From contig CAWCKJ010000003.1 of the NCBI GenBank assembly GCA_963796105.1, positions 160,001-224,000 of the forward strand: a stretch of 64,000 bases of DNA. The letters run 5' to 3'. The DNA is from a candidate division FCPU426 bacterium (GTDB taxonomy: Bacteria; Oederibacteriota; Muellerivitia; Muellerivitales; Muellerivitaceae). Position numbers: made by a program. Positions 51,001 to 64,000 of the stretch are shown here, one piece after another; the first letter of the stretch is position 1, and each line of letters opens with the position of its first letter.

Positions 51001-54000
51001 CTCTTTGGCTTAAGGCTTCACCTAAAAAAAACATGAGATAATAAAGGAAAATCATGACAATTCCCAAAACGAAAGCGATAAAGCCCTTTGAACGAACCCA
51101 GAGCCCGAGAGGTGCGCAAAGCCAAGTGAGCGCCAGGCAGGCGAAGGGAAGCGACCATCTTTTTTGCAATTCAACTTGGACATAATTCCTCCGGGTCGCG
51201 TCGGTGGTACTGGCGATTTCCTGCACAAGCTCTTGAAAATTCATTTCCTCAAAGTCTTTTTTCACGTCAGCGATCCGGGCCAATTGATTTTCCAGCTTGA
51301 GCCGGATGACATATTCGTCGAAATAAAGGCGGTTATACGTGTTGTAATTGGTGTTATTCCACATCATAACCCCATTATGAAGCTGGAAAAAGAGCTGATA
51401 GTTTTTAGCATCGTTGACCAAGTTTCCAGTCTTAGCAATGGTAGTTTGAAGGGGATCCTTGGGGGTGAATCGGTTGAACATTTTCACGTTGGAAAAATTT
51501 CCGTCCGGGTCCTGCTGATCTATGAAAAATTGATAACCCTCGAAAAGATCGATGAAAACCCTTTCCCGGATCGCCACGTTGGCCCGGTTTTGTATGATTT
51601 TAAAGTGGATTTTCTTGAATGTGGTATTGGCCGCCGGAAGGATTTTATCATTGAAAAAGATCATCACTCCGGTCATGAGCAGGCCGAAAAGAAGAACAGG
51701 GCCGATCAAGCGGAATAAATGCACGCCGCTGCTTTTGAACGCCGTGACTTCCATGTCGGAACTCATACGGCCGAAATTCAAGAGAACGGCCATCATTAAT
51801 GACATCGGGACGGTCAAGGAAAGAACAAAGGGAATCAAACTAACGTAAAGAAGAAGAATATCGCCGAGAGGGACTTTTTTATTCACGAACAAGTCCAAAA
51901 GTAAAAAAACCTTATTCGTCATGAAAATGAAGGTCAGGATGAAAACGCTTAAGGCAAATGGGGGTAATGTTTCCTTTAAAACATAGCGGTAAACCGTTTT
52001 CAATTCTGAACCTTTAATTTTTTTAAAGTATAACCAGGTTTTCTGGTTTTGTAACCCGTTGGATAGGGCTCGGGAGTCAAAATAAAACTATACCTATTCT
52101 TTTTTTTACCTGTCTAGAGAAATAACCTCATCCAGGGGAAAGATTTGTACCGCAATATTCATAGTTAGAGATCATTTTTTAATCAATGTTTCTCCCATTG
52201 GGCTCTGGTAAACGACAGTTGAGTCTTTGGAAACGGCTCTTTAGACTTTGAATTAATGGCTTGAAATTGAAGAAGTTAAAATAGTTTTATGGGGAATTTC
52301 CTGAATATTTTGGTAACGATTCTAAGCGAGATGGGTAAAACAATGTCCTTTTTCACTGAATCTCGCCATGTTTCCCTGACACCAGGGAATAAAATCATTG
52401 GTTTTGACCGAAAGGGAAAGCGAAAATATTTCAAAACAATAAACATTGAATATTTAGTCCCAATGTCACTTTTAATGGGTATTTCAATAATGCTTTTCAA
52501 CCCCAAGCCGGGTTGGAGCCAAGCGGCCACCAACCCGGTCCCGACCGTTTCAACGACTTCAAATGGAACTCCGGCGTCTTCGGCTTTAGCCCCGCTGACC
52601 CCTGATCAGGAAATTCAAATATTAGAAGCGATCGACGCGCAGTCAAACAGCACATCAGCTATTTCGGCCAGTTCCGAAAATCCATTACCCGCCGTTTCGT
52701 CCACTAAACCGCAACAGGCGCAACCCATCGGGGCTAAAACCCCTGAAATGAACGGGAATACCACCACACCCACCGCCGTGGTGACTGGGCCTCCCCCCAT
52801 TCCCACGGGATTAAATGACCTCATCCTGAAAGAAGGGGTCTATCTTTCCTGGAACTCGGCTCCGCCCGGGTCTCCCATCGTAGGTTACAACGTTTATAGG
52901 TCGAACCAGCCTGGGACCGGCTACCAGATGGTCAACTTGAAACCCCTCAACGTGGCATTTTTCCTTGATGGCCCTCCCAATAGCCTGAACCCTCCTAAAA
53001 ATGGCGAAACCTATTTTTACGTGGTCGCATCCATTGATGCCCAGGGAAACGTGAGCCCCTATTCGGAGGAAATATCGGCACAGCCCCAGGGAATGCAATA
53101 CGCGGCCGCCACGGAGGAAGCCACCCCGGTTCCAACACATCAAAAAGAAGAAGAAAAAACATTAAACATCCCTGAAAGCAAGCTTATCAACCTTCAATTG
53201 CCGGCGGACACACAGCTCTCCATCCAGGGCTATAAGAAAATAGAGGTCCAGCTTGGTTTTCAAACCTTTAACCGTCCCCAGACTATCAATGGACTTAGCA
53301 ACTCCCAAAACACACAGCTAGTCAACCAGGAGTTGGTGGTCAATCTTGATGGCAAGGTCGGGAAAAATGTGGATATACACGTGGACTACAGCGACGTCAA
53401 CCGCGCGGGAGGCGTGGATCAGAGCAAACAGGAAATCTCCATCGCCTACCATGGTGACGAAAATAGCCCGGTGCAAGAAGTTGATTTCGGTGATCTTCAG
53501 CTTCTGCTTCCCAACACTGAATTCGCTGGATTCAGCAAACAGCTTTTCGGCCTTCAGGCCAAGCTGAAGTTTGATAATTTCAAAATGACGACTTTTTTCG
53601 CCCAAACGAAGGGAATTTCCGAGACGAAGGTGTTTACCGGAAATTCTTCACAAGTCGATAAAACATATAACGATATCGATTACATAAGACAAAAATATTA
53701 TCTTCTGACTAAAAAACCTTATCCCAACGGCTCTACCACCATCAACGTTGCCGATTTACCAAAGCCAAATTCCGAACAAATTTGGGTTAATCCTAGCAAT
53801 GGTTCCACTGCATTTCCATCCGGCCCCAATTACATCGGCTATTTTCAACATTGGCTCCCGGGAAGGGACTATACGGTGGACTATACAACCGGAGTTATTA
53901 CATTTATCACGGGGCTGTCTAGTACAGCGCAGATTGCAATAGGTTATAACGATCAAACCGGTCAAAAATATGGATTAAACGATATCAACAATATCGCTAA

Positions 54001-63000: not shown

Positions 63001-64000
63001 ATATCAAGGTGTATGCCCTGAACGGTACTTTCATCAAGGAGTTGGTCAACCGATGGTTTACCAGCGGTGTTTATGGAACGCCTGATAGTCCTTATCCCTT
63101 GATTTGGGACGCTCGTAATATGAACGGGACTTTAGTGGCTTCCGGGGTTTATCTGATTACGGTTGAGGTTAACGGCCACCAGGAAATAGACAAGATCGCC
63201 GTCATCAAATAATAAAATATCCATTTGGTTAAGTTTGATGGGCTCATCATGATTTTCAACCCAAGAAATCTTATCCGTGATTATTTGACCGACTTCATCT
63301 TTCCGAAAGTCTGTCAAAATTGCGGAAATTATTTCAAGGAAGGATTGTCCAATATTCTTTGCCGATCTTGTTTCGATTCCATTCTCCCCTACGAAGATCC
63401 CGTTTGCAATCATTGCGGTGTTTCTCTGCCCATAAGAGGATTTGAGTCCGCCGTCAATATCAGATGCCGTGATTGCGGCGAAGGGAATTATCATTTGGAT
63501 TTTGTCCGTTCCTTGGGTGCTTATGAGGGCCCCATTCGAATCATCCACCACGCCTTCAAGTTTGAGGGGATGGAAAGACTTAAAACGCCGGTCGCTGATA
63601 AAATAGTTAAACATGTGCCTCATTTTTTTTGGAATAACGTGGAGGCCTTAGTGCCAGTTCCTCTTAGCTCCGAAAAGGAAAGGGAAAGAGGATATAATCC
63701 CTCTGATTTGCTGTCAGAAGAAATTTCGCGTAGAATCGGCATACCCGTAATAAAGATCTTGCGAAAAGTTAAACCCACGCCTCCCCAAATGTCGTTAGAA
63801 AGAACTGAACGTTTGAAAAACCCCCGGAACGCTTTCGCTATTGATAATTCAATGATGATGCCAAAGAAAATTATAATGATTGACGATGTTTATACGACAG
63901 GATCGACTTTGGAGGAATGCGCTCGAATTTTAAAAATGTCCGCTGATATTTGGGTTGGCGCTCTTGTTTTCGGGCGCACTCCCCGTCGTTGATTGCGGCA

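Follow-up and report, generated by a model that had tools for sequence, protein, structure and literature searches.

A divergent SprA homologue encoded beside a C-terminally tagged protein points to a type-IX-like export pathway outside Bacteroidota and the FCB superphylum

SprA, the outer-membrane pore of type IX secretion (T9SS), is a 36-strand barrel with a cap and a lateral opening. Type IX secretion is described as confined to Bacteroidota or to the FCB superphylum in passages of four papers (PMC12421860, PMC11205867, PMC12398890, PMC10994853). According to a section of the last of these (PMC10994853), energy is needed in Flavobacterium for the release of the carrier-substrate complex. 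Specialised shuttles of the PorP/SprF type, paired with cargo whose C-terminal domain (CTD) is of type B, are described for F. johnsoniae in parts of PMC12618676, and excerpts of two other papers deal with T9SS-linked multidomain cellulases of Cytophaga hutchinsonii and 'Candidatus Paraporphyromonas polyenzymogenes' (PMC5831590, PMC12860637). For Firestonebacteria or Elusimicrobiota, a literature search returned no paper on SprA or T9SS; the T9SS passages of PMC12204202 concern PorE in Bacteroidetes.

The locus described here lies in a 64,000-nt stretch (the window) of a contig of a candidate division FCPU426 bacterium. Two ORFs that the initial annotation had placed at 52289..63212 were recovered at exactly 52289-58342 (2017 aa) and 58356-63212 (1618 aa), both on the plus strand; window positions equal contig positions minus 160000, so that g00645, at C3:212289-218342, is the first of them. 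It is referred to below as P0001, and the second as P0002. The features of the region are as follows.

45096..49630, plus strand: skp, lpxD, lpxC/fabZ fusion, lpxA and lpxI, an operon for lipid A synthesis, upstream of the locus (NCBIfam)
49687..50775, minus strand: lptG, LPS export permease, oriented divergently to the sprA-like gene (TIGR04408, 3e-71)
50852..52003, minus strand: lptF-like, LPS export permease (TIGR04407, 1.6e-62)
52289..58342, plus strand: sprA-like gene (P0001), 2017 aa, candidate outer-membrane translocon (TIGR04189, phmmer, profile against PDB, hhalign)
52766..53128, plus strand: FN3-like module at residues 160-280 of P0001, within its N-terminal extension and after a Ser/Thr/Pro-rich stretch (jackhmmer)
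53201..56761, plus strand: SprA-homologous core of P0001, about residues 305-1491 (hhalign, profile against PDB)
56762..58339, plus strand: C-terminal 526 residues of P0001, ending ...SAEARF, with no detectable match to SprA
58356..63212, plus strand: P0002, 1618 aa, with a signal-peptide-like N-terminus, about 10 FN3-like modules and a C-terminal sorting domain
62937..63209, plus strand: T9SS-type C-terminal domain of P0002, residues 1528-1618, ending ...KIAVIK (genome-specific CTD profile)
63225..63992, plus strand: comF-family gene, running past the end of the window (TIGR00201, 7e-30)

The lipid A genes were assigned with E-values of 5e-15 (Skp), 3e-117 (LpxD), 8e-133 (LpxC/FabZ), 5e-104 (LpxA) and 2e-42 (LpxI). 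P0002 is co-oriented with the sprA-like gene and starts 13 nt past its stop codon, and the comF-family gene follows after 12 nt. A promoter and terminator scan of positions 51800-64000 gave counts no higher than those of shuffled sequences.

Several lines of comparison connect P0001 with SprA. The NCBIfam SprA model, TIGR04189, matched it in five stretches with 207.6 bits against a curated equivalog cut-off of 200 (E 2.2e-61), although in the six-frame search of the genome the separate stretches were rated below the cut-off, so the pass of the whole protein is a borderline one; the same search revealed no second TIGR04189 locus. With phmmer, Bacteroidota proteins named 'cell surface protein SprA' were reached at about 1e-20. 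A profile built from 28 relatives of P0001 matched chain A of the solved SprA (6H3J/6H3I) in the PDB with an E-value of 4e-86, in an alignment spanning residues 129-1668 of F. johnsoniae SprA, and hhalign of the P0001 family against canonical SprA gave a probability of 100 and an E-value of 6e-79. Thus, judged by its sequence, P0001 is a true but divergent homologue of SprA/Sov. The link had been proposed in the initial annotation on much weaker grounds, together with two statements that do not hold: that g00645 belongs to no family, and that NCBIfam contains no T9SS part in this genome except PorV/PorQ and the sorting domain. The description 'barely recognisable' is true of Pfam, where PF14349 (SprA_N) gave no match to the protein at E<=1 (an E-value of 0.0075 had been noted earlier), and of single-sequence phmmer, which did not reach the solved SprA in the PDB, but it does not apply to the profile of the relatives.

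The homology covers the middle of the protein. The core was aligned by hhalign to columns 162-1584 and 1357-1598 of canonical SprA, and the alignment breaks off at about residue 1491, leaving the C-terminal third uncovered. At the other end, the assignment of start codon and signal peptide is uncertain: residues 59-80 form a hydrophobic stretch, and alignments of orthologues begin at residues 51-103. A jackhmmer search started from the FN3-like module found 10 repeats of it in P0002 and three in each of three ORFs in which FN3 modules are fused to a PorV-like barrel. A profile of the C-terminal part of P0001 had no match in the PDB at E<=1. Relatives from the phylum share the terminal Phe without exception (21 of 21). 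Counting period-2 amphipathicity as a sign of barrel strands in the last 526 residues was not discriminating, since CheA scores similarly. In the ESM Atlas, residues 1480-2017 led to unnamed clusters of Elusimicrobiota and Gemmatimonadota, one of which carries SprA_N on 15% of its members; we take these matches as leads only.

The C-terminal domain of P0002 was recognised by the genome-specific CTD profile with E-values from 2.5e-11 (iteration 1) to 9e-17 (iteration 4), the iteration 1 match spanning residues 1531-1618 of 1618. The PorZ, PorU and M6-like models also gave weak matches with their CTD ends, and TIGR04183 found nothing in this tail at E<=1. The domain is conserved in 12 orthologues, one of which, from a related genome, is 43% identical to P0002 over 98% of its length. 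A CTD protein directly downstream of the pore gene was found at all eight judgeable loci of the own clade and at five of 10 other loci of the phylum. P0002, whose FN3-like modules are joined by Thr/Pro-rich linkers and are of the same type as the module on the N-terminus of the pore, is probably a conserved dedicated cargo or surface partner of the pore.

To count such tails genome-wide, we seeded a CTD profile with 34 ORFs matching the CTD part of the PorU model and iterated it on the six-frame ORFs. Between 116 (iteration 1) and 122 ORFs had a CTD ending within 15 residues of the C-terminus, where 110 proteins had been counted earlier, and these ORFs account for 8.8% of the bases of the genome. 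In total, 121 of 136 domains were found at the extreme C-terminus; 13 of the 15 non-terminal copies occur in proteins that also have a terminal one (12 of these are second copies), and one copy narrowly misses the cut, ending 16 residues before the C-terminus. No reversed-sequence control was matched. The curated type A model, TIGR04183, matched 48 ORFs, 47 of them over its cut-off, more than the 29 proteins that the initial annotation had counted as flagged by family models. By a crude test, a signal-peptide-like N-terminus is present in 77 of 121 tagged ORFs and in 888 of 2604 others. In a sample of every sixth tagged ORF (20 of 121), four carried GH9, GH5 or GH62 catalytic domains, one was an esterase with a mannanase-type binding domain and six belonged to no family, which agrees with the earlier statement that the domain marks glycoside hydrolases, cellulases among them, and family-less proteins.

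The PorV-like barrels had been numbered at sixteen; there are indeed 16 matches, but they fall in only 14 distinct ORFs. For ten of the 14, a CTD ORF is no more than 3 kb away (19% expected by chance); at least seven had earlier been reported next to a cargo gene. NF033709 (PorV_fam) was matched with 175 bits and with 90.5 bits against a cut-off of 90, and PF11751 (PorP/SprF) had no match over its cut-off in the genome. The core PorV-family protein, the one with 175 bits, has one orthologue, 54-84% identical, in 16 of 19 sampled relatives from the family and order, and paralogues of it were present in 31 of 31 genomes. Because the CTD is almost always found at the extreme C-terminus, scores over the TIGR04183 cut-off in 47 ORFs and occurs together with PorV-like barrel genes, its role as a sorting tag, as proposed in the initial annotation, is supported at the sequence level.

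Of the genomes sampled from the host phylum (which also holds records titled Candidatus Firestonebacteria), 58 of 61 have the sprA-like gene, as do 48 of 51 Elusimicrobiota genomes and 16 of 61 genomes of Spirochaetota. In a tree built on an hmmalign-based alignment of the core, these sequences are separated from canonical SprA with an SH-aLRT of 100, in a clade that includes members titled Elusimicrobiota and Spirochaetota. The pore loci of records titled Firestonebacteria have PorP/SprF and CTD genes alongside, and those of Elusimicrobiota PorV-like barrels and an M6-peptidase with a CTD. The domain exceeded the cut-off in 33 of 51 Elusimicrobiota genomes; 15 SprA-positive genomes of that phylum, mostly of 1.0-1.7 Mb, had no CTD match.

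We propose, with a probability of roughly 0.7, a type-IX-like export pathway in a phylum outside Bacteroidota and the FCB superphylum, with P0001 as its SprA-type outer-membrane translocon. The proposal draws on the homology of the pore, on the position, number and family of the tags, on the pairing of cargo with carrier genes, and on conservation and synteny across phyla. About 120 proteins, including giant repeat proteins and multidomain cellulases, would be exported by Sec; PorV-family carrier barrels docked at the pore would recognise their type-A-like C-terminal domain, and the cargo would leave the pore together with its carrier. The tagged proteins would pass through the P0001 pore. Besides the one conserved core PorV/PorQ orthologue there are at least 13 paralogues, of which ten, encoded immediately behind a cargo gene, would be cargo-specific carriers or anchors, for which the PorP/SprF shuttles for type B cargo in Flavobacterium provide a model. 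The carriers would stay as anchors, and with barrels of this kind a PorU sortase could be dispensable. Likewise, the system may work without a GldLM/GldKN energy chain, perhaps driven by the folding of cargo outside the cell, or with a chain that is not recognised.

The last point touches the alternative that fares best, although we consider it unlikely: an ordinary, complete T9SS whose GldK, GldL, GldM, GldN, PorU and other parts are too divergent for models trained on Bacteroidota. As reported earlier, GldL, GldM, GldN and the catalytic part of PorU were missing from the model matches. The GldL, GldM and GldN models matched none of the genomes searched, the 14 controls included, so that their sensitivity is uncontrolled; with this proviso, GldM was found in 0 of 61 genomes of the phylum, 0 of 51 Elusimicrobiota and 0 of 5 genomes of a further set, and GldL had no real match in the 61 and none in the five. 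SprA itself also speaks for this alternative, since it only just passes its cut-off here and exceeds it in only five of the 61 genomes. On the other hand, six other T9SS models (SprA, PorV, PorQ, PorP/SprF, CTD and C25) do reach the phylum, and thus the blank for motor and sortase does not come from T9SS models failing in general so far from Bacteroidota; GldM being equally blank in Elusimicrobiota also speaks against the alternative. For GldK, the genome yielded only partial FGE-domain matches, none above 63 bits where the cut-off is 350, and the four FGE-type ORFs, considered as possible heads of a gldKLMN operon, had no LMN-like neighbours. NF033707 (PorU) was matched in 35 ORFs by its CTD part only. 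C25 proteins (PF01364) of about 1190 aa with partial PorU matches, a point in favour of this alternative, occur in 6-7 of the 61 genomes, but the domain is absent from this genome and from its family (0 of 11). It should be added that a Ton-type motor fused to the system was considered and rejected: none of the five MotA/ExbB genes of the genome, one of them flagellar, has a PorV-like or CTD gene as its direct neighbour, and the CTD ORF closest to any of them is about 7 kb off on the other strand.

A second alternative, which appears improbable to us, is that the sprA-like barrel is a housekeeping factor of outer-membrane biogenesis tied to LPS export, for example a stand-in for or helper of LptD, and not the exit pore of CTD proteins. 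The neighbourhood gives it some substance: genes for LptF/G adjoin the sprA-like gene at 35 of 80 related loci and at none of 80 canonical sprA loci, ComF lies downstream at 33 of 80 against 1 of 80, and the full order lptG-lptF / sprA-like / comF occurs at none of the 80 canonical loci. The gene is near-universal even in the small Elusimicrobiota genomes, including the 15 with no CTD match, and PorV/PorQ-family barrels flank a second lptF-like/lptD-like cluster of the genome. However, we reject a replacement of LptD, since there is a separate LptD-like protein of 699 aa, which has an OstA-type N-terminus, matches the LptD model at 1e-9 and, when three LptD-like ORFs from elsewhere in the phylum were used as queries, was matched by them at 1e-29 to 1e-39. 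Moreover, the pore with which P0001 shares homology has protein export as its solved function, and in several phyla CTD cargo or PorV/PorP-like genes are found at the pore locus. The tight linkage to lptF/lptG and the Elusimicrobiota with no CTD match hint at a further or other role of the sprA-like gene.

That the C-terminal domain is simply a common Ig-like or FlgD-like fold ending surface proteins, with no sorting function, is hardly credible: Pfam reports FlgD_ig on several tails and that of P0002 stays under the TIGR04183 threshold, but the terminal position of nearly all copies, the 47 ORFs over a curated cut-off that no control genome (0 of 14) matched, the pairing of tagged genes with PorV-like carriers and the basic final residue (R, K or H in 97 of 121 ORFs) all argue against it.

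We therefore return to the export pathway. With a relative of the pore, a tagged partner, about 120 tagged cargo proteins and no recognisable motor or sortase, the outer-membrane core of type IX secretion seems to work, in altered form, beyond its stated range, and we regard the system as a real, previously not known variant of a known secretion system. A wider proposal can be offered tentatively, and we would put it somewhat below even odds: SprA pore, PorV-type carriers and sorting tags may constitute an old, self-sufficient export module, vertically inherited and genetically tied to lptF/lptG, which serves nearly all members of at least two non-FCB phyla (that containing Firestonebacteria, and Elusimicrobiota) and part of Spirochaetota with neither a GldLM/GldKN rotary energy chain nor a sortase; the motor-driven T9SS of Bacteroidota would then be a later elaboration.

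The finding matters because pore, carriers and tagged proteins, with cellulases among them and nearly a tenth of the genome devoted to them, occur together in a phylum outside Bacteroidota/FCB, and because nearly every genome sampled from two phyla carries the pore. If the GldLM motor is truly missing, the group is a natural test of the step at which type IX transport needs energy and bears on the evolution of the machinery. For annotators, the tags are a guide to the secretome of these uncultured bacteria from soil and sediment and to the machinery with which they degrade polysaccharides at their surface.

Among the known systems, LptD is likewise a large outer-membrane barrel encoded near lptF/lptG, but it has no sequence relation to P0001, in which OstA-type/LptD matches are absent. 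Compared with the T9SS of Flavobacterium, no GldLM/GldKN energy chain was detected in the host genome. As in the T9SS cellulases of Bacteroidota, GH9, GH5 and GH62 enzymes with CBMs bear the sorting tail here, while the host stands outside Bacteroidota and no gliding or T9SS motor genes were found in it. The arrangement of a cargo gene followed by its own outer-membrane barrel gene recalls the PorP/SprF pairs of F. johnsoniae and is represented here by the PorV-like ORFs beside CTD ORFs; in contrast to those pairs, the barrels are of the PorV/PorQ family, some of them fused to FN3 modules, and the tails are type-A-like (TIGR04183). The closest relative is SprA of F. johnsoniae (PDB 6H3I, 6H3J, 8GL6), or Sov of Porphyromonas gingivalis, with which P0001 shares homology over about 1200 residues. 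P0001 is about 400 residues shorter than SprA, has an extra N-terminal Ser/Thr/Pro-rich stretch and FN3 module, has no detectable SprA match in its last 526 residues, belongs to a separate clade and is encoded between lptF/lptG and comF. Like SprA/Sov, it is a giant, single-copy, predicted outer-membrane protein that co-occurs with PorV-family barrels and CTD cargo.

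The simplest account of the locus around P0001, the product of an sprA-like gene and a candidate outer-membrane translocon, is a type-IX-like export route for proteins tagged with a T9SS-type C-terminal sorting domain (CTD). P0002, an FN3-array protein, is encoded directly downstream of it. The positions of both ORFs in the initial annotation were correct; its rule of subtracting 192000 was not, the window spanning C3:160001-224000 of genome G000. The locus and the neighboring features are as follows.

Window 52289-58342, co-oriented with P0002: P0001 ORF, 2017 aa
Window 58356-63212, co-oriented with P0001: P0002 ORF, 1618 aa
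Beginning 12 nt past P0002: comF-family gene
Upstream of the P0001 gene, divergent: lptF-like gene and lptG
Further upstream, past the lptF-like gene and lptG: skp-lpxD-lpxC/fabZ-lpxA-lpxI operon
Window 10614-23397: chemotaxis cluster cheR, cheW, cheC, cheD, cheB, cheA

The lipid A operon begins with a Skp homologue (window 45096-45644), 7 kb upstream of P0001. A Skp homologue is described as a structural component of the extended translocon of Flavobacterium in PMC10994853; for the Skp here such a role is no more than conceivable. Two other window proteins deserve mention: a 767-aa protein (7812-10115) combining a T2SSE-type secretion ATPase domain with a long TPR region, which stands among TPR proteins at the start of the chemotaxis cluster, and a fusion (33610-34548) of a REP-associated tyrosine transposase domain (residues 4-139) with a DnaA C-terminal-like DNA-binding region (residues 225-310).

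P0001 is clearly recognised as a SprA homologue by four sequence comparisons: (i) the NCBIfam full-length SprA model TIGR04189 matched it at 207.6 bits (E 2.2e-61), narrowly passing the cut-off of 200; (ii) phmmer in a large protein collection reached Bacteroidota entries named 'cell surface protein SprA' at ~1e-20; (iii) a profile of 28 relatives matched the F. johnsoniae SprA structures 6H3J/6H3I over SprA residues 129-1668 (E 4e-86); and (iv) hhalign aligned it with 18 canonical SprA proteins with probability 100 and E 6e-79. The blank reported earlier for this gene against Pfam and PDB was reproduced, as P0001 has no Pfam match and single-sequence phmmer against PDB did not find SprA. The SprA match stops near residue 1491, and for the last 526 residues neither a PDB search (E<=1) nor hhalign gave any match; the terminal Phe is invariant in 21/21 phylum relatives. 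An FN3-like module occupies residues 160-280 in the N-terminal extension. In the whole genome (G000) this is the sole SprA-like locus.

The putative cargo was delimited with our own CTD profile, seeded with 34 ORFs matched at their C-termini by the CTD part of the PorU model and iterated over the genome-wide six-frame ORFs. The domain ended <=15 residues from the C-terminus in 116 to 122 ORFs, and 121 of the 136 CTD domains were terminal; of the remaining 15, 12 occur as an additional copy beside a terminal one in the same protein, and one ends 16 residues before the C-terminus, barely beyond the cut. Reversed sequences gave 0 matches. The curated model TIGR04183 matched 48 ORFs of G000, 47 above cut-off, and was found in 0/14 control genomes. 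Tagged ORFs total 145,660 residues (8.8% of genome bases), and the final residue is R, K or H in 97/121 of them. By a crude test, signal-peptide-like N-termini occur in 77/121 tagged versus 888/2604 other ORFs. A Pfam sample of every sixth tagged ORF (20/121) contained two GH9, one GH5 and one GH62 with CBM3, together with an esterase with a mannanase-type binding domain and six ORFs without a family. P0002 joined the tagged set at the first iteration (E 2.5e-11); the curated model does not reach it.

Candidate carriers were sought with the PorV model, which gave 16 matches in 14 distinct ORFs of G000. Of the 14, 10 follow a cargo gene of the same strand at a distance of no more than 3 kb, whereas regions this near to tagged ORFs make up only 19% of the genome. 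PorV-family matches were present in 31/31 genomes. The FN3 subtype of the P0001 N-terminal module and the P0002 repeats recurs in three of the PorV-like ORFs. These fused barrels of 607-677 aa, with three modules each, lie at C4:570439-579053, C2:434841-436799 and C2:196889-198709, and one of them comes after a 2194-aa cargo with 16 such repeats.

The motor, ring and sortase searches bear on the main rival, a complete T9SS too divergent to recognise. GldM and GldL had no match in G000, and both were found in 0/5 genomes titled Firestonebacteria, Elusimicrobiota or Spirochaet-; GldM was found in 0/61 phylum and 0/51 Elusimicrobiota genomes, and GldL gave two weak matches only (E 7e-4 and 0.006) among the 61. 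GldN had no match, and the GldK model found only the FGE domains of four ORFs, none followed by LMN-like genes. These two weak hits apart, the GldL, GldM and GldN models matched in none of the genomes searched, so that absence of these parts is not proven; a partial control, and the sole one, comes from six further T9SS models, which do work at the same distance. The PorU match in G000 is confined to the model's own CTD, and no C25 domain was detected in G000 or its family (0/11). PorP/SprF gave nothing above cut-off in G000 and matched in 13/41 phylum genomes (10 above cut-off). A test for a Ton-type motor was negative: G000 has five MotA/ExbB genes, one flagellar, and none has a PorV-like or tagged gene as its direct neighbor, with ~7 kb to the closest tagged ORF, which is on the opposite strand. 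We consider this rival rather unlikely.

C25 proteins do occur in 6-7 of the 61 phylum genomes. They measure ~600-1500 aa, with several close to 1190, and match PorU in part; examples are those at loci L114 (G012:C2, 4912-8478, 1188 aa) and L115 (G049:C10, 4736-7348, 870 aa). One protein of this type bears a T9SS CTD, and they may be either sortases or gingipain-like cargo.

A housekeeping, LPS-linked role of the pore is less probable still. It is suggested by the lptFG linkage: the own clade, Firestonebacteria-titled loci and Elusimicrobiota loci all retain the order lptG-lptF / sprA-like / comF. LptF/G occurs in 35/80 related loci versus 0/80 canonical sprA loci, and ComF in 33/80 versus 1/80, the canonical loci being metagenomic, many of them incomplete, and having flanks of 8 kb instead of 10 kb. 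Other genes also adjoin the pore: a PorP/SprF barrel and CTD proteins in Firestonebacteria-titled loci and, in Elusimicrobiota, a TPR protein, PorV/TraF-like barrels and a CTD-bearing M6-type peptidase. A CTD protein lies directly 3' of the pore gene in 8/8 judgeable own-clade loci and 5/10 other phylum loci; that of the related locus L028 is a P0002 orthologue (43% identical over 98% of its length). The small genomes without detectable tags also hint at a housekeeping role. CTDs above cut-off were found in 33/51 Elusimicrobiota, and none (TIGR04183, E<=1e-4) in fifteen SprA-positive genomes, mostly of 1.0-1.7 Mb (G106, G115, G118, G121, G124 and ten more), where either the tails may be divergent or the pore may have another job. 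In the own phylum 30/61 genomes had a CTD match at E<=1e-9, a threshold that shows only 1/48 CTD matches of G000.

The pore as an LptD stand-in was ruled out, because G000 encodes its own LptD-like protein. A second LPS cluster (L119, C3:692000-710000) has an LptD-like gene (699 aa) behind a third lptF-like gene (397 aa). On its flanks are two barrels of the PorV/PorQ family, of 318 and 350 aa, and a 481-aa ORF without assignment, with uvrA and an IS1595 transposase in between. The 318-aa barrel clearly passes the PorV/PorQ family cut-off (175 bits vs 90) and has one orthologue each (54-84% identity) in 16/19 sampled relatives of the family and order. Two tandem 302-aa ORFs at C3:859241-861143, identical in their first 40 residues, have the length of the IS1595-family ORF in L119. 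A 476-aa ORF found at four places (C4:1115300-1116730, C8:3189-4619, C4:1605955-1607385, C2:237525-238955), two copies having identical first 40 residues, is probably an insertion sequence. The sprA-like gene of L028 is immediately preceded by genes for a LytS-type histidine kinase and a LytTR response regulator (7865-9918); their BLAST cluster has members in 9 own-clade and 10 Spirochaetota-titled loci, and the G000 orthologues (57% and 66% identical) are on another contig (C8:22676-24576).

A reading of the CTD as an Ig-like end domain without meaning can be considered very unlikely: it is opposed by where the domain sits, by its passes of the curated model and by its pairing with carriers.

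Of the sampled phylum genomes, 58/61 had an SprA-like match (44/46 of those of good quality), as did 48/51 Elusimicrobiota and, at E<=1e-12, 16/61 Spirochaetota. Trees of the shared core (FastTree and a quick IQ-TREE search) both set 30 proteins apart, with full support, from 17 canonical ones that bear PF14349. These 30 form an own-phylum group (11 rows, support 99), an Elusimicrobiota-type group (12 rows, 89) and a Spirochaetota-type group (7 rows, 100) that follow record titles, a grouping partly circular because groups were assigned from these titles and the first tree.

T9SS is called unique to Bacteroidota or the FCB superphylum in PMC12421860, PMC11205867, PMC12398890 and PMC10994853, and the literature searched for SprA or T9SS in Elusimicrobia or Firestonebacteria held nothing relevant. 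What the window adds is a further phylum with a well-supported case, the contrast in lptFG-sprA-comF synteny with canonical loci, a conserved FN3/CTD partner gene (P0002), and an FN3 module common to pore, carriers and cargo.

In the type-IX-like export route, Sec would deliver tagged proteins to the periplasm, a PorV-family carrier would bind the tail at the SprA-type pore, and the carrier-cargo pair would exit sideways. In Flavobacterium, according to PMC10994853, the substrate CTD contacts the pore wall and PorV loops, and energy is required for pulling the carrier-substrate complex off the pore. Here release might be paid for by folding of very large cargo outside the cell or by an unrecognised motor. 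The carrier would remain as anchor, and cargo-linked PorV paralogues in this function could explain the missing sortase. Type B cargo of Flavobacterium has dedicated, genetically linked PorP/SprF shuttles (PMC12618676); the many cargo-linked PorV paralogues of G000 look like this scheme extended to type-A-like tails.
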